A stretch of 64,000 nucleotides of DNA from positions 1,888,001-1,952,000 of the forward strand of contig OY729426.1 of NCBI GenBank assembly GCA_963422365.1, written 5' to 3'. A model generated the notes under the pieces. It made no database searches and was not told the DNA's origin. It was given only the letters and a program-made list of their open reading frames with translations. A program made the translations under genes and the position numbers. This stretch comes from Nitrospirales bacterium (GTDB lineage Bacteria > Nitrospirota > Nitrospiria > Nitrospirales > UBA8639). Positions 9,703 to 40,736 of this stretch are shown piece after piece. Positions within the stretch are counted from its first letter, which is position 1. Every line of letters starts with the position of its first letter.

Positions 9703-10098
9703 ATGACCAGGACATTGAAGTCCGTGCATGTTTTTTATTGTTTCGGATGGATGATGCTTGTTGTTGTATTGCCGTTTGGTTTGGGTCAGGCAGGGGGTTC
9801 TCAAATCATCCTTTTGGACCAGGAACCTTTTTATGTGCCTTCGACCATGACGATTCTCCAGGGACAGCCGGTCCAGTGGCATAATCAGTCGATGCAGCCT
9901 CATACCGTGACCCACGATGGTTGTGGGCAAGGCAGGATGTGCGCCTTTGTATCTGAGCATCTTCATCCCGGCGAGCGCTTCAGCGTCAGAGGCTTATCCA
10001 CTGGAACCTATTCTTATCATTGTGAAATCCATCCATTTATGCGAGGCCGCATTCAGGTTAAACAGGTTGTGCGAAATGACGGCGTCACGGAATTGTAG
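9703..10098 (+). CDS. Periplasmic type 1 blue copper protein (plastocyanin/amicyanin-like cupredoxin)
   Basis: Signal peptide; PHTVT and YHCEIHPFMRG give His/Cys/His/Met ligands. Confidence 0.88.
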   Translation: MTRTLKSVHVFYCFGWMMLVVVLPFGLGQAGGSQIILLDQEPFYVPSTMTILQGQPVQWHNQSMQPHTVTHDGCGQGRMCAFVSEHLHPGERFSVRGLSTGTYSYHCEIHPFMRGRIQVKQVVRNDGVTEL

Positions 10099-22439: not shown

Positions 22440-22623
22440 TTTTTGTTGTTCCTGCCTTTTTTCCGTACACTGAGGCAAACGGCCTTGGGGAAAACCCTTA
22501 CTGTTTTGATCTGTGATTCTCCTGTTGATACGAGGAAACAGAAGGCGACAATTCCCTTATGTATCCGTTTGCGAATTCGTGATGTGTGCTTTCTCTATTC
22601 AGGGTCAGCTCTTCGACATCGTT

Positions 22624-24924
22624 ATGGCGACGTCTTCTAAATTGACTCCGCGTTTATTTCCTTCCACGAGGTTGCAGGAACGGCTTATTCGTGAGGATGA
22701 GCCTAGCCCTCAAGCTCAGAGCTTCCATTTGAAACCGGTCTGGATCGTCCTGCTCCTCTTGATTCCGTGTTTGTTCTTGACGATTTACTATGCACAGTAT
22801 GGAGGAATTGGAGGAAGGACGGCAGACTCGCTTCTTCCAAGCCCGAGTTACGCATTGGTTTTGTTACTGGTCTATTTAGACGTCGTCGGATTGGTTGTCC
22901 TTATCCTTTTATTATCTCGCAATTTAATTAAGGCCTATTTTGATCGACGACACCGACTGTTAGGGTCAGGATTTCGTGCTAAATTAATTGCCGCATTCAT
23001 TGGGTTTTCGTTGATCCCAACCCTGTTATTGGCGGTTATAGCCAGTGAGGTAATTAATGAAGTCATGAAAGTCTGGTTTAATAATCAGATCGAGGAAGTC
23101 CTGAAAGACTCCGAAGAATTATCCAGGATGTATCATGAAGGGCATACGACCTTGGCCATTCAGAGTGCCAGGGCCATTAGCAAAGAAATTTACCGCGAAG
23201 ATTTTTTGCGGCCAGGTTATCGTGAACGATTCATGGCTGCCGTGGCTCGGAAGCGCGCGGAATTTAACGTCGCAGGCGTAGAAGTATTTTCGTCGAAATT
23301 GGAGATGCTCGTTCGGATGATCGACCCAGAGTCGCCTGCCAAAATGTTCCGGTTGCCGGTTGTGCAACTCGTTCGTCAGGTTCTGGATTCGCATGATGAG
23401 ATGACCTCAGTGCAAGTCGCGCAAGCAGGACGGGTGATCCTTGCGGCGGTGCCGATTGCATCCAATACACAACCCGGAGGGATTAATGGAGTGGTGGTCG
23501 TCAAGACCTACGTCTCGGAATCGCTCTTGGCGAAAATGCAGGGCATTGCTCAACAATATACTGATTTCCGGCAGATGAAGGCTTTGGAAAATCCTATTAA
23601 GGCCGGGGCCTATTTATTTGTTGGGGTTTTCACCGTCTTGTTGTTGTTTAGCGCCACCTGGTTTGGATTTTATGTGGCAAGAAGTATCACTGTGCCGATT
23701 CAGAAATTGGCTGAAGGGACCGAAGCCGTAGCCCGCGGAAATCTCAATATAAGAATTGCCGTCAATGCAACCGATGAGATCGGGACGTTGATCGAATCGT
23801 TTAATCGAATGACGGCGGATTTATCAAACAACAAAGTCAAATTGGAAGAAGCCAATCAATCTCTCATGCAATCAAATGTCGAAACTGATCGTCGGCGAGC
23901 GTATACGGAAGCCGTGGTAGACACGATTGCTTCAGGCGTGATGTCTATTGATACGCATGACACGATTACCACGTTCAATCATTCCGCTGAACGGATTTTA
24001 GGGGTGGGAGGGGAGGCCATCCGTGGGCATGTGGTGTTTGATGTCTTTAAATCCCATCAATTCACATTATTTCAAGAGGCCTATGATAAGATGTTACGTG
24101 ATGGCCAGGACAGTCTCACGCTTGAAGGACAAATAGAGGTGCAGGGGAAGCTCCTCACTATGGGCCTGAATCTTTCCCGAATGAGAAATGAGGCAGGAAA
24201 AGATTTAGGGTTTGTGCTTGTCTTTGAAGATCGGACCGAATTGATTAAGGCGCAAAAAACCGCAGCCTGGCAAGAAGTGGCACAACGGATTGCGCATGAA
24301 ATCAAAAACCCTCTTACGCCTATTCAACTGGCGGCACAGCGGTTACGAAAAAAGTTTTTTGAAGGGTCTCCTGAGTTTAAAACTATTTTTGATCAATCGA
24401 CGAACGTCATCGTGAATGAGGTGGGAAGTTTAAAGCGAATGGTGGATGAATTTTCAAAATTTGCCAGAATGCCTGCTCCGCATATGACGAAAGAAGCGTT
24501 GCACGATATCATTGAAAAAGTATGTGCGCTGTATCGGGGTGGGCATCATGAGGTTGAGTTTGTTTCGGCCTTTGATTCCTCTGTCCCGGATATCAAGATC
24601 GACAAGGAACAAATGCGTCGTATGTTTGTGAATTTGTTTGATAATGCCGTTCAAGCGATGAAGCAGAAAGGTCATATCTGGATCGCCACGAAAATGGATT
24701 GGAAGCACCAACGGGTTCGAATCACGGTGGCCGATGAGGGGCAGGGCATTCCTCAAGGAGATCAGGGAAAATTATTTATCCCGTATTTTTCACGAAAACG
24801 AACGGGAACCGGACTTGGACTGGCGATTGTCCATCGAATTGTGACGGATCATAATGGGACGATCCAGGTCTCCAATCGTCACCCCAATGGAGCCGTGTTT
24901 AGTATCGAACTTCCTGTCACCTAA
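22624..24924 (+). CDS. ntrY: NtrY-like sensor histidine kinase (TM-HAMP-PAS-HisKA-HATPase)
   Basis: GSGFRAKLIAAF, HAMP DEIGTLIESFNRMT, AAWQEVAQRIAHEIKNPLTPIQL, GTGLGLAIV; start uncertain. Confidence 0.9.
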   Translation: MATSSKLTPRLFPSTRLQERLIREDEPSPQAQSFHLKPVWIVLLLLIPCLFLTIYYAQYGGIGGRTADSLLPSPSYALVLLLVYLDVVGLVVLILLLSRNLIKAYFDRRHRLLGSGFRAKLIAAFIGFSLIPTLLLAVIASEVINEVMKVWFNNQIEEVLKDSEELSRMYHEGHTTLAIQSARAISKEIYREDFLRPGYRERFMAAVARKRAEFNVAGVEVFSSKLEMLVRMIDPESPAKMFRLPVVQLVRQVLDSHDEMTSVQVAQAGRVILAAVPIASNTQPGGINGVVVVKTYVSESLLAKMQGIAQQYTDFRQMKALENPIKAGAYLFVGVFTVLLLFSATWFGFYVARSITVPIQKLAEGTEAVARGNLNIRIAVNATDEIGTLIESFNRMTADLSNNKVKLEEANQSLMQSNVETDRRRAYTEAVVDTIASGVMSIDTHDTITTFNHSAERILGVGGEAIRGHVVFDVFKSHQFTLFQEAYDKMLRDGQDSLTLEGQIEVQGKLLTMGLNLSRMRNEAGKDLGFVLVFEDRTELIKAQKTAAWQEVAQRIAHEIKNPLTPIQLAAQRLRKKFFEGSPEFKTIFDQSTNVIVNEVGSLKRMVDEFSKFARMPAPHMTKEALHDIIEKVCALYRGGHHEVEFVSAFDSSVPDIKIDKEQMRRMFVNLFDNAVQAMKQKGHIWIATKMDWKHQRVRITVADEGQGIPQGDQGKLFIPYFSRKRTGTGLGLAIVHRIVTDHNGTIQVSNRHPNGAVFSIELPVT

Positions 24925-25044
24925 TGCCCCAAGACGGTGCATGAAGTCACCATGCCTCCTGCGGTAGATTCACCCCAAACCTTTTCGTGACGAATGACCT
25001 TCTGGCTCGTGATCGATCACTCGTCATAACTTGGAGGAATAGGA

Positions 25045-26421
25045 ATGTCCGGCACGATCTGTCTCGTTGATGATGAACCGTCTATCTTGAATACCTTAAG
25101 TAGTATTTTGGAAGACGAGGGGTATCAAGTCATGGTCGCGAAAACCGGTGAGGAGGCCTTAAAAGTCATTCAAATGGAGCCACCGGATATCGTGATCCTT
25201 GATATTTGGATGCCGGAACTCGATGGCTTAGAGGTTTTAAAACGTGTACGCGAGCAATTTCCAAATATGATGGTCATTATGATGTCCGGACATGGCTCCG
25301 TTGAAACTGCAGTGAAAGCGACAAAACTCGGTGCGTATGACTACTTGGAAAAACCGCTGGACCTCGAAAAAGTCGCTATCCTGGTACGTAATGCTCTGCA
25401 CCAACGCAAGCTGGAAGAAGAAAACAGCAACCTCCGCGTTAAGGTTGAGCGGCATTCGAAACTCGTTGGAGCTTCTTCCGTTATGGAGAAGCTTCGACAG
25501 CAAATTGCGGCGGCGGCGCCAAGCCAGAGTCGTGTCCTGATTTCCGGGGAAAATGGTACGGGGAAGGAACTGGTGGCCCGGGCCATCCATTTTCAAAGTC
25601 TTCGACCTCATTGCCCTTTTGTTGAAGTCAACTGCGCCGCAATCCCTGAGACGCTGATTGAGACAGAGTTATTCGGACATGAACGCGGTGCGTTTACAGG
25701 CGCTGTTTCTCGAAAACGTGGAAAATTTGATTTGGCAGACGGCGGCACTCTGTTTCTTGACGAAATTGGCGATATGAGTTTGGCCACTCAGGCGAAGGTC
25801 CTTCGCGTATTAGAAGAACAACAATTTACCCGAGTGGGCGGGGGGAACCTGATTAAAGTCAACGTCCGTGTCGTCGCAGCGTCCAATAAAAATTTTCGCC
25901 AAGAAATTGAAAAAGGGAATTTTCGCGAAGATTTGTTTTATCGGTTAAACGTTTTGCCGATAGAAGTGCCGCCGCTTCGCACCAGACGTGAAGATATTCC
26001 GGCTCTCACGCGGCATTTTTTAAAGATTCATGCAGAAGAGCAGGGGGTGAAGTTGAAAGAAATCACTCCGGGAGCCCTGGATGCATTGGTGCATCATGAA
26101 TGGCCGGGCAATATTCGAGAGCTTCGCAATCAAGTCGAGCGCCTGATGATTATGGTGCCCAAAAACACCATAGAAATGGCCGACATACTACCGTTTATGC
26201 CAACAAGAGGGGGCGAAGGTTCAGTGAACCGAGTCAATCCGATGGGGGCATATGATTCCTTGCGTGATGCTCGGAATGCGTTTGAACGCGAGTATATTGC
26301 GATTCGTTTGCGAGAGAATAGTTGGAACGTCTCAAAGACCGCCGACGACTTGAAAATCGAACGAAGTCACTTGCATCGAAAAATTAAACTTCTGAACGTG
26401 GAACTTCGTTCAGAAAACTGA
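25045..26421 (+). CDS. ntrX: NtrX-like sigma54-dependent response regulator
   Basis: REC (LVDDE, LDIWMP, MSGHG), [22 protein letters not shown]-terminal [11 protein letters not shown]. Confidence 0.92.
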
Positions 26422-28549: not shown

Positions 28550-28644
28550 AATTTCACCTTTGCCTGCGGAAACCTGTAATTTGTGAGCACCACGGCAAAG
28601 GATGGGTTGACGGAACCGGAGAAGAAAAATTTTTTACGATACTC

Positions 28645-28672
28645 CTTAATAATTTTTCTAAACATTATTAAG
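28645..28672. promoter_or_regulatory. Palindromic operator, probable Rrf2 autoregulatory site
   Basis: CTTAATAATTTTT-CT-AAACATTATTAAG (13-bp arms, one mismatch), 3 nt before the Rrf2 ATG. Confidence 0.6.
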
Positions 28673-28675
28673 AAT

Positions 28676-29164
28676 ATGCGGCTTTCCAAAAAAAGTGAAT
28701 ATGGGTTGCGGGCCTTAATCGAATTGACTAGGGCCTATGAGCAACAGGCTTTGCGACGATCTGAAATCGCGGAATCCCAACGCATTCCCATGGGGTTTTT
28801 AGAGACCATTTTATTGGAATTAAAGCGGGCGGGAATTTTAGGGAGTCGTCCCGGTGCTCAGGGTGGGTATCGGTTAATTAAATCTCCCGAAGACGTATCA
28901 CTCGGACAAGTCATTCGTATTCTAGATGGTCCCCTCGCGCCGATTGCCTGTGTGAGTCAGACGGCCTATCAAACGTGTCAAGATTGTCCGTATTCTGAGG
29001 CCCGGGAATGTCCGATTCAAAGCGTCATGTTTGAGGTGAGGCATGCCATCGTCAATGTGTTGGATCGGTACACATTGCGAGCATTTTATGACCGAGGCCC
29101 GAATCGTCGCTCCCGGAAACCTCCAAAAGACCGCAGGCTTCAGGCCATCGGCAGAACTCAATAA
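28676..29164 (+). CDS. Rrf2-family transcriptional regulator (Cys-rich)
   Basis: MRLSKKSEYGLRALIEL, SRPGAQGGYRL, IRILDGPLAPIAC, C-x8-C-x2-C-x7-C. Confidence 0.93.
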   Translation: MRLSKKSEYGLRALIELTRAYEQQALRRSEIAESQRIPMGFLETILLELKRAGILGSRPGAQGGYRLIKSPEDVSLGQVIRILDGPLAPIACVSQTAYQTCQDCPYSEARECPIQSVMFEVRHAIVNVLDRYTLRAFYDRGPNRRSRKPPKDRRLQAIGRTQ

Positions 29165-30449: not shown

Positions 30450-30478
30450 TTGACAATGACGTAAAACTGAAGTAATAA
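30450..30478 (+). promoter_or_regulatory. Putative sigma70 promoter of the porin-amt-glnK-amt-glnA operon
   Basis: TTGACA-N17-TAATAA immediately upstream of the structured leader. Confidence 0.5.
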
Positions 30479-30489
30479 AAAAACAATGT

Positions 30490-30544
30490 CAAGACATTGG
30501 TGTCTTGTACGCGAGCGCTTATTTTTGAAGGACGATGAAGTCCT
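30490..30544 (+). promoter_or_regulatory. Dual hexaloop hairpin, ANTAR-target-like RNA motif
   Basis: P1 CAAGAC-ATTGGT-GTCTTG, 21-nt linker, P2 AGGAC-GATGAA-GTCCT; C-G closing pairs, G at loop position 4; P2 overlaps the terminator. Confidence 0.75.
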
Positions 30545-30577
30545 CATCCATGAAAGAATGGTTGAGGACTTTTTTTT
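30538..30577 (+). terminator. Intrinsic terminator within the operon leader (attenuator)
   Basis: AAGTCCTCA-T-CCAT-GAAAGA-ATGG-T-TGAGGACTT running into a T8 tract, about 130 nt upstream of the first CDS. Confidence 0.88.
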
Positions 30578-30707
30578 GTCTGGGCGGAGCCTTGCAGAAG
30601 TTGAATGAAGTGAAGCGCTCCTTCATTCACGACAAGTCGCGCACAAGGGCGTGTGCTGAATGGAATCTATCTCTCCAACAACGAATTTCGACTAAGGAGA
30701 ACTGAAA

Positions 30708-31931
30708 ATGGCTGAATGGATTATGAAGCGAATGTGTTTGTTTATTTTTGGTATTGCCGTGGCGGGGTGGCTTCCTGCACCACTATTGAGTTCGGTGGCT
30801 CTGGCGGAAGATGAGGATCAATCTTTGGCGAAGAAATTAGATCTTTCGCTGTATGGCTATGTGGAAGCCTCGTATACACAAAATTTCAACAATCCTTCTA
30901 CGGGGGTGAATAACAATCGGAGTTTTGACGGCGATGCGAATTCCTTTCGACCCAACATGGCGCAGATCGTCCTGGAGAAGGTCGCGAGTTCAGGAGGGTC
31001 ACTGACTGATCGGGCAGGATTCCGCATTAAGCTGAATGCCGGTGAAGACGCCAAATTTACCGGCGGAAGCAGCGGCAATGACGATTTTGATTTTCAAGAA
31101 GCCTACGTCCAATACATTGCGCCCATAGGAAACGGTGTCATGTTTCAAGCCGGTCGCATGAACACGCTGATCGGATATGAAGTGATCGAAAGCCCGCTCA
31201 ATCCCAATTTCTCCCGGTCCTTTCTGTTCGGCATGGGAGAACCCTTCACGGTAACGGGGCTTCGCGCAGCGTATGACTTTACGGACAATGTCTCGTTTGC
31301 GGTCAGCGCCATCAATTCATTTACGGGATCGCAATCCGATGAAAATAGCAGCAAATCCGTCGAGGCGCTCCTTTCTCTCGCCCCTATGGATAACGTGGGG
31401 GTGTCCGTGTTTGGTTTTTGGGGGCCTGAAGGCGATCGAGGACAAAAAGATACGGACCGTGTGCAGGTGGGAGGAATTCTGGACGTACAGGTCACCGACC
31501 AACTGGAACTCGTGCTTGAAGGCTATTATGGGAATCATGCAAATCATCCTGATGATCCAGGATTGGTCAATGCCCGTTGGAATGGGGTCGCGGGATATTT
31601 CATTTATGACTTTACCGACCAGTGGGGATTCCACGTCCGGGGTGAAGTCTTTGAAGACGCGGCAGGCAAATTCTCGTGTGCCGGTGGTGGTGGCAATGCC
31701 CTTGCCTGCCCTGGACATAATGAAGAGAATTATAAAGGTGAAGAGAATTATAAAGGGCCTAGCCAAACATTGTGGGAAACGACGTGGACCCTGCAATACA
31801 AGCCGGTTCCCAATCTCATTACACGAGCGGAATTCCGGTACGATAAGTCCGACAGGAATACGTTTCAAAATGGCGCCGGTGTGGGCAATAATCAATCAAC
31901 CTTAGCCGCGGAAGCGATCTTCCTCTTTTAG
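30708..31931 (+). CDS. Outer-membrane beta-barrel porin (DUF1597/BBP2-like)
   Basis: Signal peptide; YGYVEASY, QEAYVQY, GRMNTLIGYEVIESPLNPNFSRS, RAEFRYD; C-terminal Phe; AAGGAG RBS. Confidence 0.88.
   Translation: MAEWIMKRMCLFIFGIAVAGWLPAPLLSSVALAEDEDQSLAKKLDLSLYGYVEASYTQNFNNPSTGVNNNRSFDGDANSFRPNMAQIVLEKVASSGGSLTDRAGFRIKLNAGEDAKFTGGSSGNDDFDFQEAYVQYIAPIGNGVMFQAGRMNTLIGYEVIESPLNPNFSRSFLFGMGEPFTVTGLRAAYDFTDNVSFAVSAINSFTGSQSDENSSKSVEALLSLAPMDNVGVSVFGFWGPEGDRGQKDTDRVQVGGILDVQVTDQLELVLEGYYGNHANHPDDPGLVNARWNGVAGYFIYDFTDQWGFHVRGEVFEDAAGKFSCAGGGGNALACPGHNEENYKGEENYKGPSQTLWETTWTLQYKPVPNLITRAEFRYDKSDRNTFQNGAGVGNNQSTLAAEAIFLF
31721..31756 (+). repeat. Perfect 18-bp tandem duplication inside the porin gene
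   Basis: TGAAGAGAATTATAAAGG x2, encoding EENYKG EENYKG in frame. Confidence 0.95.
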
Positions 31932-31960: not shown

Positions 31961-33277
31961 ATGGAACCTAAGACAAGAACATTGCCCACATATTTCAGTC
32001 TGGTCGTCTTGACCGTACTGGGGTTTTTAGTGTTTGCTGCAATCGCGTTCGCAGATGAATCCGGTGAAAATGCAGCGATCAGTGCCGGTGACACAGGATG
32101 GCTTCTGACCTCCTCTGCGTTGGTTCTCGCCATGACCATTCCAGGACTAGCCCTGTTTTACGGCGGGATGGTGCGCAACAAAAACGTGCTGAGCACCATG
32201 ATGTACAGTTTTATTTCCGTGTGCGTGGTCAGCGTGGTCTGGGTGTTGTGGGGCTATACCCTTGCCTTCGGCACGGACGTGGGGGGTGTCATCGGCAATT
32301 TTGAGTTTTTGTGGTCAAACGGCGTTGGGCCGGAAGCTTTTCCCGGAACTGCAGTCCCGCATCTCGCCTTCATGGTCTTTCAGCTCATGTTTGCAGGGAT
32401 TACCGTAGCGCTGATCAGCGGGGCCATTGCGGAACGCATGAAATTCCGGGCCTTCGTGCTGTTTGCAATGCTATGGGCCACTCTGATTTATTCACCGCTT
32501 GCCCATTGGGTCTGGGGTGGTGGATGGCTAGGTGAATTAGGCGCCTTGGATTTTGCCGGCGGCACGGTCGTACACATTAGTTCGGGGGTCGCGGCCCTGG
32601 CCGCAGCGCTTGTGATCGGCAAGCGGCATGGCTATGGGTCAGACAATATGGCTCCTCATAATTTGCCCCTTACAGTTGTTGGGGCCTCCCTATTATGGGT
32701 TGGGTGGTTTGGGTTTAACGCAGGGAGTGCCTTGGCAGCCGATGGTATTGCTGCAGGGGCCTTTGTGGCCACGCACGTGGCCACCTCTGCCGGCGTGTTG
32801 GCGTGGCTGGCCGTGGAATGGATGTATCGAGGGAAACCAACGGTCTTGGGTGGAGCAAGCGGTGCCATTGCCGGTTTGGTGGCGATCACTCCCGCGGCAG
32901 GTTTTGTCGGCCCGATTTCCGCGATTTGGATTGGGCTTGGCGCTGGGGTCTTCTGTTATTTAGCGGTAGTATGGAAATCCAAGTTCGGCTATGATGATGC
33001 TCTCGATGTGCTCGCGATTCATGGCATTGGAGGAACCTGGGGTGCCATAGCCACAGGACTCTTTGCCAGCGTGGGCGGGGGGACCGGCTTGTTTTTCGGA
33101 AATCCGGGGCAAGTCCTGATTCAGGTTATCGGCGTTGGAGCCACTTTGGTGTTTTCGTTTGTCGGCACGTTTATTATTCTGAAAGTGTTGGACATGTTGA
33201 TGGGCCTTCGAGTGAGCAAAGAGGACGAGATTATCGGGCTAGATCTTAGTGAACATAGTGAACAGGCATATGCCTAA
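31961..33277 (+). CDS. amtB: Ammonium transporter (copy 1)
   Basis: PGLALFYGG, FQLMFA, HWVWGGGW, DFAGGTVVH, WFGFNAGSAL, DDALDV..HG. Confidence 0.97.
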   Translation: MEPKTRTLPTYFSLVVLTVLGFLVFAAIAFADESGENAAISAGDTGWLLTSSALVLAMTIPGLALFYGGMVRNKNVLSTMMYSFISVCVVSVVWVLWGYTLAFGTDVGGVIGNFEFLWSNGVGPEAFPGTAVPHLAFMVFQLMFAGITVALISGAIAERMKFRAFVLFAMLWATLIYSPLAHWVWGGGWLGELGALDFAGGTVVHISSGVAALAAALVIGKRHGYGSDNMAPHNLPLTVVGASLLWVGWFGFNAGSALAADGIAAGAFVATHVATSAGVLAWLAVEWMYRGKPTVLGGASGAIAGLVAITPAAGFVGPISAIWIGLGAGVFCYLAVVWKSKFGYDDALDVLAIHGIGGTWGAIATGLFASVGGGTGLFFGNPGQVLIQVIGVGATLVFSFVGTFIILKVLDMLMGLRVSKEDEIIGLDLSEHSEQAYA

Positions 33278-33319: not shown

Positions 33320-33730
<411 letters not shown>

Positions 33731-33807: not shown

Positions 33808-35106
33808 GTGAAACACTCGACCTTCTCATTCATGTGGCTATTGGTTGTGGTTCTGAGCTTATGTTGTGGGCTGGCAAACGGATGGGCCCAGGAAGGGACC
33901 TCCGGGGGCATCGATACGGGTGATACGGCATGGATTCTGGTATCGTCTGCATTCGTGTTGTGTATGACGTTTCCTGGATTGGCGCTCTTTTATGGCGGGC
34001 TGGTCCGGAGTAAAAACGTACTTGGGACGCTTATGCATACCGGCGTTATCCTGTGCGGAATCAGTATCGTATGGGTCCTGCTTGGCTACTCATTGGCATT
34101 CGGCACTGACATCGGCGGAATGATCGGCAGTCTCGAATTTCTTGGCTTGCTGGGCGTGGGACAAGACGCCTATCCCGGCACCGGCATTCCTCATTTAGCC
34201 TTTATGATGTTTCAACTCATGTTTGCCGCCATCACTGTGGCTTTGATTACCGGAAGCTTTGCTGAGCGGATGAAATTCACGGCCTTGCTGCTTTTTGCCG
34301 TACTCTGGTCAGTCCTGATTTATTCGCCCCTTGCCCATTGGGTGTGGGGAGGAGGTTGGCTGGCAGAGATGGGCGCGCTGGACTTTGCAGGAGGCGCCGT
34401 TGTGCACATCAGTTCCGGGTTTGCAGCTCTTGTCTGTGCCCTGGTATTAGGAAAGCGCAAAGGCCATGGGATTGAGCCTATGCCTCCTCACAATCTCCCC
34501 ATGACAGTCTTAGGCACAGGGCTATTATGGTTTGGGTGGTTTGGATTTAACGCAGGCAGTGCCTTAGGTGCCAATGGGGGAGCGGCTTCAGCCTTTGTGG
34601 CCACGCATATTGCGGCTTGTGCCGGTGGGGTTAGTTGGGTGGCGGTAGAATGGATCCGAAGCGGTAAGCCGACCGTGCTTGGATTGGCGAGCGGCATTAT
34701 CGCAGGCTTGGCCACCATTACTCCAGCAGCCGGATTTGTAAGGCCCTTGTCAGCTTTAATTATTGGAGTGTTGGCGGGTGTGCTCTGTTATGCAGCCGTT
34801 GTCTGGAAAACAAGACTCGGGTACGATGACTCGCTCGATGTGGTCGGCATTCACGGAGTGGGAGGGTTCATCGGAATCCTGGCAACCGGGTTATTGGCTT
34901 CGGTAGGAGCACAGGGGTTATTTTTCGGGAACCCCTGGCAATTTGTGATCCAGCTAGTGCTGGCCTTTGCCACTATGGTTTTTGCCCTGGTGGGAACCTA
35001 CATTATTTTAAAAGTCGTCGATCTCACTGTGGGTCTTCGCGTTTCATCGGACGATGAAGAAGTCGGGCTGGATTTAAGCCAACATAATGAGCGTGCCTAT
35101 TCCTAA
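33808..35106 (+). CDS. amtB: Ammonium transporter (copy 2)
   Basis: Same Amt motifs: FQLMFA, DFAGGAVVH, WFGFNAGSAL, DDSLDVVGIHG. Confidence 0.97.
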   Translation: MKHSTFSFMWLLVVVLSLCCGLANGWAQEGTSGGIDTGDTAWILVSSAFVLCMTFPGLALFYGGLVRSKNVLGTLMHTGVILCGISIVWVLLGYSLAFGTDIGGMIGSLEFLGLLGVGQDAYPGTGIPHLAFMMFQLMFAAITVALITGSFAERMKFTALLLFAVLWSVLIYSPLAHWVWGGGWLAEMGALDFAGGAVVHISSGFAALVCALVLGKRKGHGIEPMPPHNLPMTVLGTGLLWFGWFGFNAGSALGANGGAASAFVATHIAACAGGVSWVAVEWIRSGKPTVLGLASGIIAGLATITPAAGFVRPLSALIIGVLAGVLCYAAVVWKTRLGYDDSLDVVGIHGVGGFIGILATGLLASVGAQGLFFGNPWQFVIQLVLAFATMVFALVGTYIILKVVDLTVGLRVSSDDEEVGLDLSQHNERAYS

Positions 35107-35167: not shown

Positions 35168-36577
35168 ATGACTCCGCGTGAGGTATTGGATTTTGCGAAA
35201 AAAAACAAGGTGGAAATGGTTGATTTGAAATTTGTGGACTTGGTCGGGACGTGGCATCATTTTTCTATCCCCACCTCGGAACTGACTCTTGATTTGTTTA
35301 AAGATGGATCAGGATTTGACGGGTCGTCTATCCGTGGGTGGAAAGCGATTCAGAATAGCGACATGCTGGTGTTTCCTGATCCGAACACTGCGAGGGTGGA
35401 TCCGTTTACCGAACTTCCCACTCTCAGCATGGTGTGTAACGTGCAAGATCCAATCACGCATGCAGTCTATGAGCGGGACCCACGAGGCGTGGCTCAACGA
35501 GCGGAGCAATATCTCAAGAGCACCAAAATCGGCGATGTCTCCTATTGGGGACCTGAAGCCGAATTCTTTGTTTTTGATCATGCCAGTTATGATCAAAACA
35601 GTCACTCAGGATATTATTTCATCGACTCCGAGGAGGGTATTTGGAATTCGGGAGAAGACGTCCACAATTTAGGCTCACGGCCTCGGCATAAGGAAGGCTA
35701 TTTCCCCGTCGCCCCAACGGACACGCAACAAGATATCCGCTCCGAAATGGTCAGGGAAATGGAAAAAGTCGGAATTCACGTTGAAAAACACCATCACGAA
35801 GTGGCCACGGCAGGACAAGCTGAAATTGATCTTCGCTTTGATACGTTAGTGAGTATGGCCGACAAAATGATGATGTATAAGTACATTGTCAAAAACGTGG
35901 CCCGGCGTCATAACAAAACCGCGACGTTTATGCCGAAACCGTTATTCCAGGATAATGGAACAGGCATGCATACCCATCAAAGTATTTGGAAAGACGGGAA
36001 ACCGACCTTTGCCGGCAAAGAATATGCGGGTGTTTCGAAAACGTGTTTGTATTACATCGGCGGCGTCCTGAAACATGCTCCGGCCTTAGCGGCGTTTACG
36101 AATCCGACGACCAATTCCTATAAACGGTTGACGCCTGGATTCGAAGCTCCGGTGTTGTTGGCGTATTCCAGCCAGAACAGGTCGGCCGGCATTCGGATTC
36201 CGATGTATTCTTCCAATCCGAAAACTAAACGAATCGAGGTGAGATTTCCCGATCCCTCAGCCAATTTCTATTTGGCGTTTAGTGCGATGCTGATGGCGGG
36301 ACTCGACGGCATTCAAAATAAAATTGACCCGGGCGAAGCCATGGACAAAAATCTCTACGATTTGGAACCGGAAGAAGCGACCAATATTTCAACGGTTCCC
36401 GCAAGTTTGGAAGATGCCATCAACAATTTGGAAAACGACTATCAATTCCTGCTAAAAGGGGGAGTCTTCAGCGAAGATCTAGTGGAAGCCTGGATCGGCT
36501 ACAAGAGGGACAATGAAGTGGATCAGGTCAGAATTCGACCCCATCCGCATGAATTCTTTTTGTACTACGATATTTAA
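35168..36577 (+). CDS. glnA: Glutamine synthetase type I (beta, adenylylatable)
   Basis: [42 protein letters not shown], adenylylation loop KNLYDL. Confidence 0.98.
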
Positions 36578-36614: not shown

Positions 36615-36655
36615 AAAAAGGCGTGTATCTGATTCAATCGCAACGCGCCTTTTTT
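36615..36655. terminator. Probable bidirectional terminator-like hairpin between glnA and the convergent glnE-AT gene
   Basis: AAAAAGGCGTGT...ACGCGCCTTTTTT; overlaps last codons of the minus-strand gene. Confidence 0.6.
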
Positions 36656-39015
36656 CTCCCTCCACGAAACGGGCTCCGTTGTTTCGCGTTCTCTTCGGCT
36701 CTTGTTTGATTATTCTCTACTGCAGGTTTCTCTTCCTGGATTGCTTGTGGGGAAAAAAACTTGGCAAAGAATGTGCGTGACCGGTTCATGCGTTTTTGTA
36801 ACTCGCGTTCAAACGCTCGCGCCCCTTCTTGCCAGACGTCGGTCATATACCCCAATCTTCTTGCGAGGTACGTCATGTTGTCCGACCCTGGTTGCGGCAA
36901 CACTAAGTCCTTGGCATTTCCCCGAACGATACGCAATCCATCGATAACCTTTCGCATAAACAGATAATCTTCCATCAAGATCGTTGCATCGTGACGTGAG
37001 AGAAGTTTTGTCGCTTGAAGGGCTTCAAGCGCTTGCAGAGTGTTGGTTGTATGGAGTGAGGCCTCCCGGTGTCCATGCTGTAATTGGAAGTATTGCACGG
37101 TGTATTCAATATCGATAAGCCCACCCGGGCTGTATTTCACGTGAATGGTTCCCGGAGGAACCAACTCTTGTATCTGCCGGCGGCGCAGGTGTAACGCGGT
37201 GTCTAACGGCCAGGGGGCTTGACCATACACGAATTCATCTCTGTAGCGTTCTATTTGTCGACCAAGGGCAGCATTTCCTGCGACGTGTCGCAGCTTAATC
37301 CAGGCTTGCCGCTCAAAAGGCGCAGCCGCTCCTTCTGTCCGGTAATAGCGTTTAATTTCTTCAAATGAATGAGCCAGCAGGCCTTTTTCTCCGTGAGGTC
37401 GAAGTCGGATATCAAGTTGAAAAATTCCTTCCTGTTTAGCTTCGATCCAACGAAGGAATTCTTGGACGAGTCGCTCAAAGTATTCACCGACGACGGGGTT
37501 GGGAGTATCAGAAATCTTCGAGAACGTCCCGTAGACAAAGATCACCTCAATGTCGGAAGCATAGCCTAGCTCACGCCCTCCCAACTTGCCCAACCCACAA
37601 ATGCTGAACGGCAAAGGGTCCCTCTTCAGCGTGGATGGCAGTATGCGTAACAGATCGACCACCGCCTGAGCCTCACTGAGGGCTTGTGCTAAGATCACTT
37701 CGGCCAAGGTCGTGAGAGATTTGGAGAATGCGGGGAGCGGTATCTTTTTGAGAATATGGTGCATGTCGATACGAAACAACTCCTGATCTTTAAACTGATT
37801 CAATATCGCTTTTCTGATTTCAGCTTTTTTGCTCTTTCTGAGTCTGGACTCTAACGCTTTGGCCAGAGAGGTTTTTGATAAACGGACATGGGGTTGATGA
37901 AACTTTTCAACAATAGGCAAGAGGTTGACGTGTTGCCGGCGAAGGAAGTCTTCCCATAAGAAATCGCTCGTGCCAAATAACCGAGCAAGATTAGCCAACG
38001 AATCCTTTCTGGTGAGCCATTTGATTTGTTTCTTGCTGAGGCGATTTTCCAGGAGCTGATCGAGGAAGTCACTAAAATGATTCAAAGCCTTGCAGGGGTC
38101 AGGAGCCCAGGTGAGGTAATGGGTAAATTCCTTGATGAGGGCTATGGCCACGGTCAGCTCTTGTTGTTCTTGTGCCGAGACGATTTTCTTTCCATACCGA
38201 TCTCTGACAAAAAATCGGTTATAGACGCTCCTCCCGTCTCCTTCGATCGTAGCTTTTGATAACGAGAGCCCTCTCATGGTCAACGCATTCATAAAGGCAT
38301 ACAAAAAAGCCGGAGAATCCGTGGCTCTGATATTGACAACCGTTTCACGTGGAGACAGTGTATTGTTAAAGAAAATTTCAACCGGCTGGACAAGATCGGA
38401 GGTAGACGTTTTTCTTTGTCCAAGAGTTTCGACTAATTTTCGGTTCACCCAACTCCGAACCTCCTGGATTTTCTGTAACTCGAGTAATTGAATCATGTTC
38501 GTCAATTCCCGACTCAGCTCTTTTTGAATGTTGGCATTGAAGAGAGCACCCGGCAGAACGTGAACCCGAAAGATGTCCACGACTTTTTTTCTTGATAACC
38601 CTGACCGCTGAATGTGCCGGCGGATCGGCCATTTGGGTACTCGCATGCGACGTAAGGATTTCGGCAGGAGGGGAGGGGGAGGAGCGGGATGGTCTTGATA
38701 CGTAAAAATAGAGGCTTCACGTATATCGAGGCCATAGGCAGACAGCAACCCGCAAATTGTGGCAAATTCTGCAAAATAGTCGTAGGCAACAATGGTGAGC
38801 CGATACTGGCTTGTATCGTTTGCAGGTTGCACGTGGAGCGTACAGGGGGATTCCAAGGTCAGGGTATTGGCCAAGGCCAGGTGTCGAGCAACAGTTTGTG
38901 GTCGAAATTGTGAGAAATAATCTGGATCCATGCGATCCAGAAAATCTTTGATAACCGTGGGATTGACTTGAGGAGAGAGTTCTTGTAATTCCGTCAGCTC
39001 AAGCGTCTTTTTCAT
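36634..39015 (-). CDS. glnE: GlnE adenylyl-transferase half fused to two N-terminal GlnD-like ACT domains
   Basis: ACT-like LTIVAYD..FATICGLLSAYGLDIREASIFT and FNNTLSPRETVVNIRATDSPAFLY; NT motif GLGKLGGRELGYASDIE, DIRLRPHG, KYSPGGLIDIEY. Confidence 0.85.
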   Translation of the reverse strand: MKKTLELTELQELSPQVNPTVIKDFLDRMDPDYFSQFRPQTVARHLALANTLTLESPCTLHVQPANDTSQYRLTIVAYDYFAEFATICGLLSAYGLDIREASIFTYQDHPAPPPPLLPKSLRRMRVPKWPIRRHIQRSGLSRKKVVDIFRVHVLPGALFNANIQKELSRELTNMIQLLELQKIQEVRSWVNRKLVETLGQRKTSTSDLVQPVEIFFNNTLSPRETVVNIRATDSPAFLYAFMNALTMRGLSLSKATIEGDGRSVYNRFFVRDRYGKKIVSAQEQQELTVAIALIKEFTHYLTWAPDPCKALNHFSDFLDQLLENRLSKKQIKWLTRKDSLANLARLFGTSDFLWEDFLRRQHVNLLPIVEKFHQPHVRLSKTSLAKALESRLRKSKKAEIRKAILNQFKDQELFRIDMHHILKKIPLPAFSKSLTTLAEVILAQALSEAQAVVDLLRILPSTLKRDPLPFSICGLGKLGGRELGYASDIEVIFVYGTFSKISDTPNPVVGEYFERLVQEFLRWIEAKQEGIFQLDIRLRPHGEKGLLAHSFEEIKRYYRTEGAAAPFERQAWIKLRHVAGNAALGRQIERYRDEFVYGQAPWPLDTALHLRRRQIQELVPPGTIHVKYSPGGLIDIEYTVQYFQLQHGHREASLHTTNTLQALEALQATKLLSRHDATILMEDYLFMRKVIDGLRIVRGNAKDLVLPQPGSDNMTYLARRLGYMTDVWQEGARAFERELQKRMNRSRTFFAKFFSPQAIQEEKPAVENNQTRAEENAKQRSPFRGGRKKARCD

Positions 39016-39098
39016 GGCAAATCAGTATACCTTCACGTGTTACTATTGTAAGGACAGGCTGCCAGTTTATCATCAAACGTTTCTCAGCGTTATTCCAG

Positions 39099-40736
39099 AT
39101 GCCCATCATGAGCAACCCACAATCGTCCGCAAGCTGCGACCCTCGCCCTCTCCTGCTTTCTCCGGATTTGGCGCCTGCGGAAGTCGCACGGTTGTTGGCT
39201 CCGTATAGATTCCATAATTGGAAGCAAGCCGACGCCAACCTGCAACTCATGGCCGGTGATCCTCGAAGCCGAAAACTGCTTGCTGACATTCTCCCTGATC
39301 TCTTGTACGCCGTCTCGGTAACGGCCGATCCGGATCAAGCTTTACGTGAATGGGAACGATACCTTGATGCCGGCAATGGAAGAGCCCAGGTCTTTAGCTT
39401 TTTGGCACAAGTGCCACACGTCTTGCAATTGGTCTGCGTCCTCTTTGGAAACAGTCCTGCCATGGCGGAAACGCTTATTCGAGACCCTATGCTGATTTAT
39501 TGGGTCGAGGATGAGCATATCCTGAAATCCCACCCCACTCCCAAACCACTCCGGACGGCGTTGCACCAAACCCTTGATCTTGTGCAAGCCTATGAACAGA
39601 AGCTTGACGTTCTTCGGCGCTTTCATCGGCGCGAAATGCTACGCATTGGCGCGCGGGATCTCTTTCGCGTTTCGTCCGTCAAGGAAACCGTTCACTCTCT
39701 GTCGCAACTCGCGGAAATTGTCATCCATGCCGCGTATCAGCTTGTCAACGAAACACTACAAAAAAAATACGGCATTCCCTCTCATCAAGGTCCCAAAGGC
39801 ACAACAAGTGAAACAGGGTTTGTGGTGTTGGGAATGGGAAAGTTAGGTGGCCGTGAACTCAATTACAGCTCCGATGTCGATCTCGTCTATTTATATGCGT
39901 CAAGCAACGGTCACACAAAAACCGTTAAAGGGCAGGCAGGTCTCGGCAATGAGGCTTTTTTCCAAATGCTCGCGAGAGAACTGACTCACGTCTTGTCGGC
40001 TTCTACTTCGGAAGGGTGTTTATTTCGAGTGGATTTGCGATTGAGACCTGAGGGGGCAGGTGGACCATTAGCATGGTCGAGCCGTGAAGCCATCAAATAC
40101 TATCAAACACGGGGAAGAAGTTGGGAGCGACTGGCCTTGTTCAAAGCTCGCGCCATAGCAGGGCAACGGTCTGTTGGCCAGGCCTTTCTCAGGAGGATTC
40201 GGCCGTTTGTCGTAGGGCGAGAAGAACGGGAACCCCACAACATTCTAGACACGGTTCGTGCGCTCAGGACACAGATTCACCAAAAAGTGGAACAAAAAGG
40301 GGAGCATGAACGCAACGTCAAACTCAGTCCCGGAGGAATTCGGGACATTGAATTCATTGTCCAGACTCTTCAATTACTGCATGTTCCAACGTATCCACAA
40401 TTGTTCGAGCCCAATACGATCACAAGCCTTCAATGTCTTTGTGACCTCAACCTCTTGCGAGCCTCGGATGGCAAAGCCTTGGAGGAAGCCTATCTGTTTT
40501 TGCGCGACGTCGAGCATAAACTCCAAATGGTTCATGAACTGCAAACCCATACCTTACCGATTCACCCTTCTGAATTGACCAAATGTGCCATCCGCATGGG
40601 TTATGCAGAACAACGTACCTCTTCTGCGGCTACAAGATTGCTTACCCGTTACCGATTCGTCCTGAATCAGGTTCAACGCCTCTATCAACAAATGTTGCCT
40701 TCACGATCGCATGCCACAGGTGATGGATCTCTATAA
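39099..40736 (+). CDS. glnE: GlnE adenylyl-removing half as a stand-alone gene
   Basis: GMGKLGGRELNYSSDVDL, FRVDLRLRPEG, WERLALFKAR, NVKLSPGGIRDIEFIVQ, YLFLRDVEHKLQ; only one NT domain in 545 aa. Confidence 0.87.
   Translation: MPIMSNPQSSASCDPRPLLLSPDLAPAEVARLLAPYRFHNWKQADANLQLMAGDPRSRKLLADILPDLLYAVSVTADPDQALREWERYLDAGNGRAQVFSFLAQVPHVLQLVCVLFGNSPAMAETLIRDPMLIYWVEDEHILKSHPTPKPLRTALHQTLDLVQAYEQKLDVLRRFHRREMLRIGARDLFRVSSVKETVHSLSQLAEIVIHAAYQLVNETLQKKYGIPSHQGPKGTTSETGFVVLGMGKLGGRELNYSSDVDLVYLYASSNGHTKTVKGQAGLGNEAFFQMLARELTHVLSASTSEGCLFRVDLRLRPEGAGGPLAWSSREAIKYYQTRGRSWERLALFKARAIAGQRSVGQAFLRRIRPFVVGREEREPHNILDTVRALRTQIHQKVEQKGEHERNVKLSPGGIRDIEFIVQTLQLLHVPTYPQLFEPNTITSLQCLCDLNLLRASDGKALEEAYLFLRDVEHKLQMVHELQTHTLPIHPSELTKCAIRMGYAEQRTSSAATRLLTRYRFVLNQVQRLYQQMLPSRSHATGDGSL

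Follow-up and report, generated by a model that had tools for sequence, protein, structure and literature searches.

A conserved ANTAR-type leader before the porin-amtB-glnK-amtB-glnA operon of a Nitrospirales bacterium and its probable partner protein

The porin-amtB-glnK-amtB-glnA operon of a Nitrospirales bacterium is preceded by a leader that is very likely an ANTAR attenuator. The operon lies in the window, i.e. the whole stretch of 64,000 nucleotides that was analyzed. The only ANTAR protein of the genome would read two leader hairpins, P1 and P2, and gate this operon together with a nitrogen-scavenging regulon. Judged from its sequence, the leader is real and conserved, and it is very probably functional. 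The principle of the ANTAR switch is textbook knowledge. RNA polymerase would start just before P1 and by default would stop at the U-tract near position 30577, a stop that is predicted from the computed structure. As the RNA emerges, the ANTAR protein would bind P1 and P2 by their G4 hexaloops and hold P2 folded, which would block the terminator and allow transcription of the operon. Binding of the protein and read-through at the leader are suggested by what is known of the family and by co-loss. The switch is probably on when nitrogen is scarce, and one protein would gate nitrogen-scavenging operons across Nitrospirales. The computational evidence consists of the anatomy of the leader, its conservation, a single competent-looking ANTAR protein, shared targets and co-loss.

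The initial annotation of this DNA had described a TTGACA promoter, P1, a 21-nt linker, P2 and an overlapping terminator, and all of these are found where it had placed them (Table 1). The terminator was said to end in eight T residues; terminator and T-run are present, but the first two T are also the last two of the 3′ arm and had been counted twice. From the position of the promoter, the transcript is predicted to start near 30484-30486. The 5′ arm of the terminator consists of the 3′ arm of P2 plus two P2 loop bases, thus P2 and the terminator are mutually exclusive, as had been proposed, and both are conserved in 30/30 orthologues. The terminator stem contains an inner CCAT/ATGG helix. 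With fixed structures, P1 plus terminator has a computed energy of -26.0 kcal/mol vs -13.6 kcal/mol for P1 plus P2, and this difference of about 12 kcal/mol suggests that the default state is off. The fold of the terminator region has a z of -5.9 and 0/200 shuffles are equally good, whereas the P1 plus P2 fold alone is unremarkable against shuffles (z = -1.4). The linker in the window is essentially unstructured (fold of -0.7 kcal/mol). In the minimum free energy fold for the window, the 5′ end of the leader pairs alternatively with the linker, in competition with P1.

Table 1. Positions of the leader features, operon genes and proposed regulators (window coordinates unless a genome or locus is named).
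Feature	Position	Strand	Details
Sigma70-type promoter	TTGACA 30450-30455, 17 nt, TAATAA 30473-30478	+	Read from sequence
P1 hairpin	30490..30507	+	6-bp stem, hexaloop ATTGGT (A1, G4), C-G closing pair
Linker	30508..30528	+	21 nt, U-rich, 32 nt loop to loop
P2 hairpin, candidate antiterminator	30529..30544	+	5-bp stem, hexaloop GATGAA (G1, G4)
Intrinsic terminator overlapping P2	30538..30577	+	Stem 30538-30571, T8 30570-30577
P3, third ANTAR-like hexaloop hairpin	30639..30656	+	Loop AAGGGC, downstream of terminator; 17/30 orthologues
Outer-membrane porin (BBP2)	30708..31931	+	Pfam PF07642, E 7e-69
amtB, ammonium transporter 1	31961..33277	+	PF00909, E 4e-131
glnK, P-II protein	33392..33730	+	PF00543, E 6e-32; start set by alignment
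amtB, ammonium transporter 2	33808..35106	+	PF00909, E 4e-129
glnA, glutamine synthetase	35168..36577	+	PF00120/PF03951
GAF-GAF-coiled coil-ANTAR protein, 422 aa	G000:C1:1579699-1580967		Outside window
NifA-like sigma54 activator	L124:100-1590 (G000:C1:535374-536864)	-	No recognised N-terminal sensor domain

A consensus scan of the + strand for promoters and terminators reports neither the leader promoter nor the leader terminator. This is due to a -10 hexamer without T6 and to a terminator loop above the limit of the scan. An Rfam search of the leader gives no match to a curated model (best E 3.5). A strict scan for dual hairpins plus terminator finds four matches in the genome vs 0-2 in each of five shuffles; a single match is therefore weak, and it is conservation that lifts the leader above chance. 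Two of the four matches are located within or right beside coding sequence and were set aside as chance. A weak covariance-model match at window position 9708 was likewise rejected, being on a start codon and without a terminator stem.

Conservation was followed in the 30 top-ranking porin loci within the genus, one of them from this genome. All 30 keep the promoter, P2 and the terminator, and 29/30 keep P1 (it is deleted in L017). Upstream of P1, a TTGAC[AT] box is followed after 17 nt by a TA/TT/AT hexamer in all 30. The P1 loop has G4 in 29/29 and A1 in 28/29, and G4 with the C-G closing pair is found in 29/29 in both loops, although detection did not require G4. Variation is absent or almost absent from the GAC/GTC closing pairs, and the linker drifts; the distance from loop to loop is 31-34 nt in 28/29 orthologues and 23 nt in one. 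Position 1 of the P2 loop is G in 28/30 and A in 2/30. The initial annotation had entered this G as a caveat. The G is indeed the rule in the genus, but the caveat is probably minor, as the available text on the EutV-RNA crystal describes base-specific reading of G4 only and no contact to A1 (PMC8934654). Change of A to U at loop position 1 is reported to lower induction (PMC3369931, available part).

Among 290 stem cells of P1 and P2 in 29 orthologues, 99% are paired. In P1, both sides have changed at two pairs, and the 23 G-U cells vs three unpaired cells point to an RNA rather than a DNA palindrome. The 4-bp core of P2 and its G4 are invariant in the 29 aligned sequences, and pairs that never vary are no test of structure by themselves. 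For the terminator, with 13 pairs compared across 29 orthologues, 92.6% of cells are paired. Base 6 of the P2 loop covaries with a terminator base in 42 diverse elements (C-G in 30, A-U in nine), a result that is partly circular because the scan that selected these elements looked for pairing. A fairer covariation test is the alignment of orthologues; its score is reached by 2 and 5 of 500 shuffles and is inflated by kinship. The aligned leaders of Nitrospirales relatives thus keep G4, the closing pairs and the stems, the conservation by which the initial annotation had proposed to judge its reading. The testable features of an ANTAR RNA are present, i.e. two hairpins of at least 3 bp, 6-nt loops, G4, the closing pair and overlap with a terminator; position 1 of the P2 loop and the length of the linker depart from the type.

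The P3 hairpin is located about 40 nt before the ribosome site of the porin gene. Its orthologue count leaves out an 18th match, L005, which is unrelated. P3 may offer one more site for binding, or it may act in translation or stability. In most orthologues a half-box-like sequence, AATTTTGTC, adjoins the -35 of the amt promoter.

Intergenic gaps within the operon are 29-114 nt. An amt gene directly precedes glnA in 30/30 loci, with a gap of 50-65 nt in 28, and inspection of this gap by eye in the 30 loci revealed no shared promoter. On this sequence evidence glnA is probably the last gene of the same transcript. Between the first amtB and glnK, at 33325-33357, is a terminator-like hairpin that may have an attenuating or stabilising effect on part of the transcript. 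Other regulatory genes are found nearby. An NtrY/NtrX-like two-component pair (22513-26421) and an Rrf2-family regulator (28583-29164) are a few kb upstream of the operon, and two divergent GlnE-like genes directly follow glnA (36634-40736). One encodes 793 aa on the - strand, with an ACT-like domain, and the other 545 aa on the + strand; each combines one adenylyltransferase and one GlnD-type domain. GlnE thus appears to be split in two after glnA.

The initial annotation recognised no ANTAR protein in the window and placed it elsewhere. A profile search agrees with this: the genome encodes exactly one ANTAR domain (E 6e-20), with a PF03861 score of 68.9 bits vs a curated cut-off of 27.3. Together with the conserved loops and stems, this single protein supports the interpretation of the leader as an ANTAR switch on the porin-amtB-glnK-amtB-glnA operon. 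The gene is located between aroB and nadE-glnD, and the nearest named database relative of the protein, 84% identical, is from Candidatus Nitronereus thalassa. Ten RNA contacts of EutV (PMC8934654) were located in an alignment. Seven are identical (R366, K367, K373, E384, M396, N397 and R399), two are conservative (R371 and F388) and one is changed (S401).

Both GAF domains match PtsP/EI-Ntr best and NifA next (PRK11061, E 1e-19 and 2e-21; 3ci6, E 6e-20). A fold search with the alignment-based GAF-GAF-ANTAR model (pLDDT 80; 39.5 for the single-sequence model) returns only generic tandem GAFs, with cyclic-nucleotide tandem GAFs first. The GAF ligand is therefore a guess, since identity to EI-Ntr is about 30% and cyclic-nucleotide GAFs lead by fold. 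In the available text of the respective reports, the EI-Ntr GAF mediates glutamine inhibition (PMC4848567) and the NifA GAF binds 2-oxoglutarate (PMC12998190). The tandem GAFs would most likely read nitrogen status directly. That glutamine binding keeps the protein off is given somewhat less than an even chance; it is unlikely that 2-oxoglutarate turns it on, and a little more unlikely that the input is another one.

Three more ANTAR-type elements are found in this genome, before a cyanate-type ABC transporter/cyanase operon, nadE-glnD and a NifA-like activator. The cyanate leader has P2 and terminator in 20/20 orthologues, a P1 of at least 4 bp in 18/20 and EutV-like spacing. A sigma54 promoter and upstream GACA-N4-TGTC boxes accompany it in 20/20 loci. 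In these loci (L149-L168) the promoter and the two or three boxes, about 19-20 bp apart, are located 75-210 nt upstream of the cyanate P2. The nadE-glnD leader, which adjoins the ANTAR gene, has P2 and terminator and no canonical P1 in this genus. The leader of the NifA-like activator displays a 7-nt P2 loop in 6/6 genomes. The activator gene lies upstream of response regulator, kinase and phosphate-uptake-like genes, which were named by reading their translations. No close orthologue of the activator was found at E 1e-90 in 4/5 genomes of other genera. Because the cyanate operon has a sigma54 promoter and boxes, a feed-forward loop via this activator is possible.

In other genera the nitrogen cluster known from Nitrospira (described in the available text of PMC6311188) begins with the ANTAR gene. 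Elements are found in these genera before nadE, porin-amt, urtA and nirC-cynS-nirA, frequently two in series in the case of nirC-cynS-nirA. Five genomes at a greater distance were tried, and three of them have weak matches (E 0.01-0.05) before glnA. Elements of P2-terminator type are seen before glnA in families f5 and f15 (L129, L130 and L131, near 1500-1640); these genomes also carry a full-length regulator of 44-62% identity. Loops are 22-49 nt apart in 73 distinct elements from a scan that required G4, a purine at position 1 and pairing, and across the order the range is 17-49 nt. Among 15 elements with loops at least 42 nt apart, 14 have a hairpin in the linker with an energy of -7.4 kcal/mol or lower, and many of these are orthologous. 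In each genome the covariance model scored only the 69-150 best candidates, and in this one it failed to find the cyanate element. In f3 genomes the fixed pattern matches in 3/17 and the covariance model in 15/17 (three training genomes, plus G064). A fixed-pattern match in G106 was not confirmed by the covariance model and was rejected.

A full-length orthologue of the ANTAR protein (E<1e-100) is present in 193/251 genomes of the order. Genus g2 is divided, with 14 genomes that have the protein and 48 that have no ANTAR domain. A dual-hairpin covariance model, a check put forward in the initial annotation, matches in 14/14 of the former (3-5 copies; two of the 14 belonged to the training set) vs 1/48 of the latter. 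All 45 amoB-bearing g2 genomes are among the 48, and by inference they are comammox clade A-like. Among closed amoB-bearing g2 genomes tested, 4/5 are without an Amt-type gene, which in the fifth is broken; the available part of a published description of clade A comammox fits absence of Amt (PMC6311188). In four g2 genomes without ANTAR the locus is reduced to aroB-nadE-glnK-glnA. G207 has kept glnD and lost both ANTAR and amt. Absence in the 48 genomes is probably the result of one loss. As these genomes are kin and the targets have vanished too, the pattern is strong circumstantial support and not a statistic; with amt and most target genes lost as well, co-loss is partly expected.

One amoB-bearing genome, G115 (L114:1500-8900), has a broken amt, glnD and nirA fragments, and glnA in two frames. 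This is either a decay intermediate or partly assembly error. In genus g25, where amoB is found in 10/17 genomes and Amt in 5/5 tested, the protein is present in 17/17 and the element in 16. Family f4 has amt (1/1 tested), glnD (3/4) and glnA (2/2), and protein and element are both found in 0/4. An element is present and a protein was not found in G143, G064 and G176, which are drafts of 90-130 contigs; a protein is present with no model match in G041, G044 and G159. The G143 element (L126:11078-11169) is full and high-scoring and directly follows urease accessory genes, with no long open reading frame behind it. It is either a relic or borders an assembly gap.

Other explanations differ in how much of this evidence they can accommodate. 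The same RNA switch and protein might take their input from uridylylated or free GlnK acting on the GAFs, with no small ligand. This is unlikely, about as much so as activation by 2-oxoglutarate. It would agree with the presence of glnD in nearly every ANTAR-bearing genome (200/251; in g2, the 14 with ANTAR plus three), with nadE-glnD following the ANTAR gene in this genome, and with the NifA GAF-GlnB interaction described for Azospirillum (PMC3854208, available part). However, glnD persists without ANTAR in G058, G143, G207 and 3/4 f4 genomes, so the association is one-way and is expected of any nitrogen cluster, and the closest characterised GAFs, those of EI-Ntr, bind a metabolite directly according to the accessible text (PMC4848567). 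Prediction of a complex between the GAF region and a trimer of GlnK gave a score of 0.00, which carries no weight for or against contact.

It is very improbable that a repressor or an enhancer-binding protein uses the GAC-N6-GTC palindromes as operators on DNA, with the terminator as a fixed attenuator. The P1 core GACA-N4-TGTC does resemble the boxes upstream of the cyanate sigma54 promoter in 20/20 orthologues, but the excess of G-U over unpaired cells in P1 is a strand asymmetry expected of RNA, G4 is asymmetric and invariant, P2 overlaps the terminator in all elements, and elements are lost together with the ANTAR gene. That last point, i.e. that the element tracks the ANTAR gene, also speaks against a protein-free riboswitch which senses glutamine or ammonium and uses the terminator as its platform. 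Such a riboswitch would account for a conserved leader with mutually exclusive folds and nitrogen genes downstream; yet Rfam gives no match and conservation at the base level is limited to two small hairpins joined by a variable linker, and we consider it extremely improbable. Ribosome-mediated attenuation through a leader peptide has a negligible chance: short open reading frames cross the leader in this genome, but none is common to the 30 orthologues, and in three of these the first 70 nt are free of them.

The ANTAR attenuator is loosely in line with published expression, as far as the available text of the reports goes (PMC6606698, PMC5767232). On nitrite alone N. moscoviensis strongly transcribes most of the nitrogen cluster, and the assimilatory nitrite reductase of N. 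japonica is off with ammonia (PMC6606698). Transcription of the N. moscoviensis urea genes without urea is only moderate, which speaks against the attenuator (PMC6606698). Known differences between comammox of clade A and of clade B include Rh vs Amt and GlnD (PMC6311188; bioRxiv 2023.08.04.551995, available parts), and the ANTAR protein would be one more regulator among them. Control of urea use is described as loose in N. inopinata (bioRxiv 2023.08.04.551995, available part), which would be expected if clade A has lost the ANTAR layer. According to the proposal, ammonium should repress urea genes more tightly in clade B and in canonical nitrite oxidisers. A joint reading, which we offer tentatively and rate below an even chance, is that a glutamine- or 2-oxoglutarate-gated antiterminator is the master regulator of nitrogen scavenging in Nitrospirales. 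Unlike EutV, it would cope with loops up to 49 nt apart, the linker hairpins being looped out, with 7-nt loops and perhaps even with a lone hairpin, and through the NifA-like activator, which has no sensor, it would act in a feed-forward manner. Deletion of this antiterminator, along with its RNA sites and amt, would be an early step toward clade A comammox and, if the joint reading is true, may explain their loose urea control.

The literature found leaves the switching of ammonium, urea, cyanate and nitrite use in nitrite oxidisers and comammox unexplained. A candidate regulator can now be named together with its RNA sites and regulon, and the system is small enough for E. coli tests without Nitrospira genetics. 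A search by titles and abstract openings, with subscription papers outside its scope, gave no account of a Nitrospirales ANTAR system. The text of the Ramesh 2012 supplement has no match to Nitrospira, Leptospirillum, Thermodesulfovibrio, glnA or amtB; as glnA is also absent, its hit tables were perhaps unreadable and Nitrospira rows are possible.

The comparisons that follow draw on the available text of the cited reports. The closest structural parallel is the EutV/eut system of Enterococcus faecalis, whose leaders likewise display two G4 hexaloop hairpins with a C-G closing pair and overlap of P2 with a terminator (PMC3369931, PMC8934654). EutV is a phosphorylated REC-ANTAR protein, whereas the partner here is a one-component GAF-GAF-ANTAR protein in which the RNA contacts are kept. 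Two features of the leader depart from the EutV type: the first base of the P2 loop is G, unlike in eut leaders, and the linker is 21 nt (32 nt between loops) vs 5-12 nt in eut (18 nt between loops in eutP). With EutV, linkers are 5-12 nt in native leaders and one of 14 nt is strongly impaired in vivo (PMC3369931), and addition of 20 nt leaves a linker dead in vitro (PMC8934654). The linker length in the window, the absence of a canonical P1 before nadE-glnD and the 7-nt P2 loop before the NifA-like activator thus speak against the proposal. Predicted actinobacterial ANTAR RNAs were accepted with linkers of 2-25 nt (PMC8164766). The natural variants described here bear on how an ANTAR dimer engages two hairpins, a point left open by the EutV structure.

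In terms of target genes the closest parallel is GnfK/GnfR of Geobacter sulfurreducens, which likewise controls glnK-amtB and other nitrogen genes by ANTAR antitermination, in leaders layered with sigma54 control as in the cyanate operon here (PMC2995071). GnfR is a two-component response regulator, whereas the amt promoter here is sigma70-type and the architecture needs no kinase; the predicted targets here, unlike those of GnfR, include glnA, nadE, glnD, cyanase, urea and nitrite genes. NasR of Klebsiella oxytoca is likewise a one-component ANTAR protein whose sensor gates RNA binding at a nitrogen-assimilation target; it has a NIT domain, responds to nitrate/nitrite and controls one operon (PMC7496416), whereas the input here is by GAFs. 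According to the same 2020 paper, NasR and PAL were the only characterised one-component ANTARs, neither with GAF input (PMC7496416). The closest characterised relatives of both GAFs, in EI-Ntr (PtsP) and NifA, sense glutamine or 2-oxoglutarate (PMC4848567, PMC12998190) and control a phosphorelay or an AAA+ activator, whereas here, at about 30% identity, they are joined to an RNA-binding domain. The novelty claimed in the initial annotation was overrated, as ANTAR leaders before glnK/amtB were described in Geobacter (PMC2995071) and predicted in other taxa before P-II, ammonium transporter and glutamine synthetase genes (PMC3369931). The switch type and the amt/glnK/glnA targets are thus known from Geobacter GnfR and Ramesh 2012. 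What is new is a predicted lineage-wide regulon, an uncharacterised one-component sensor, linkers beyond the tolerance of EutV, and the loss.
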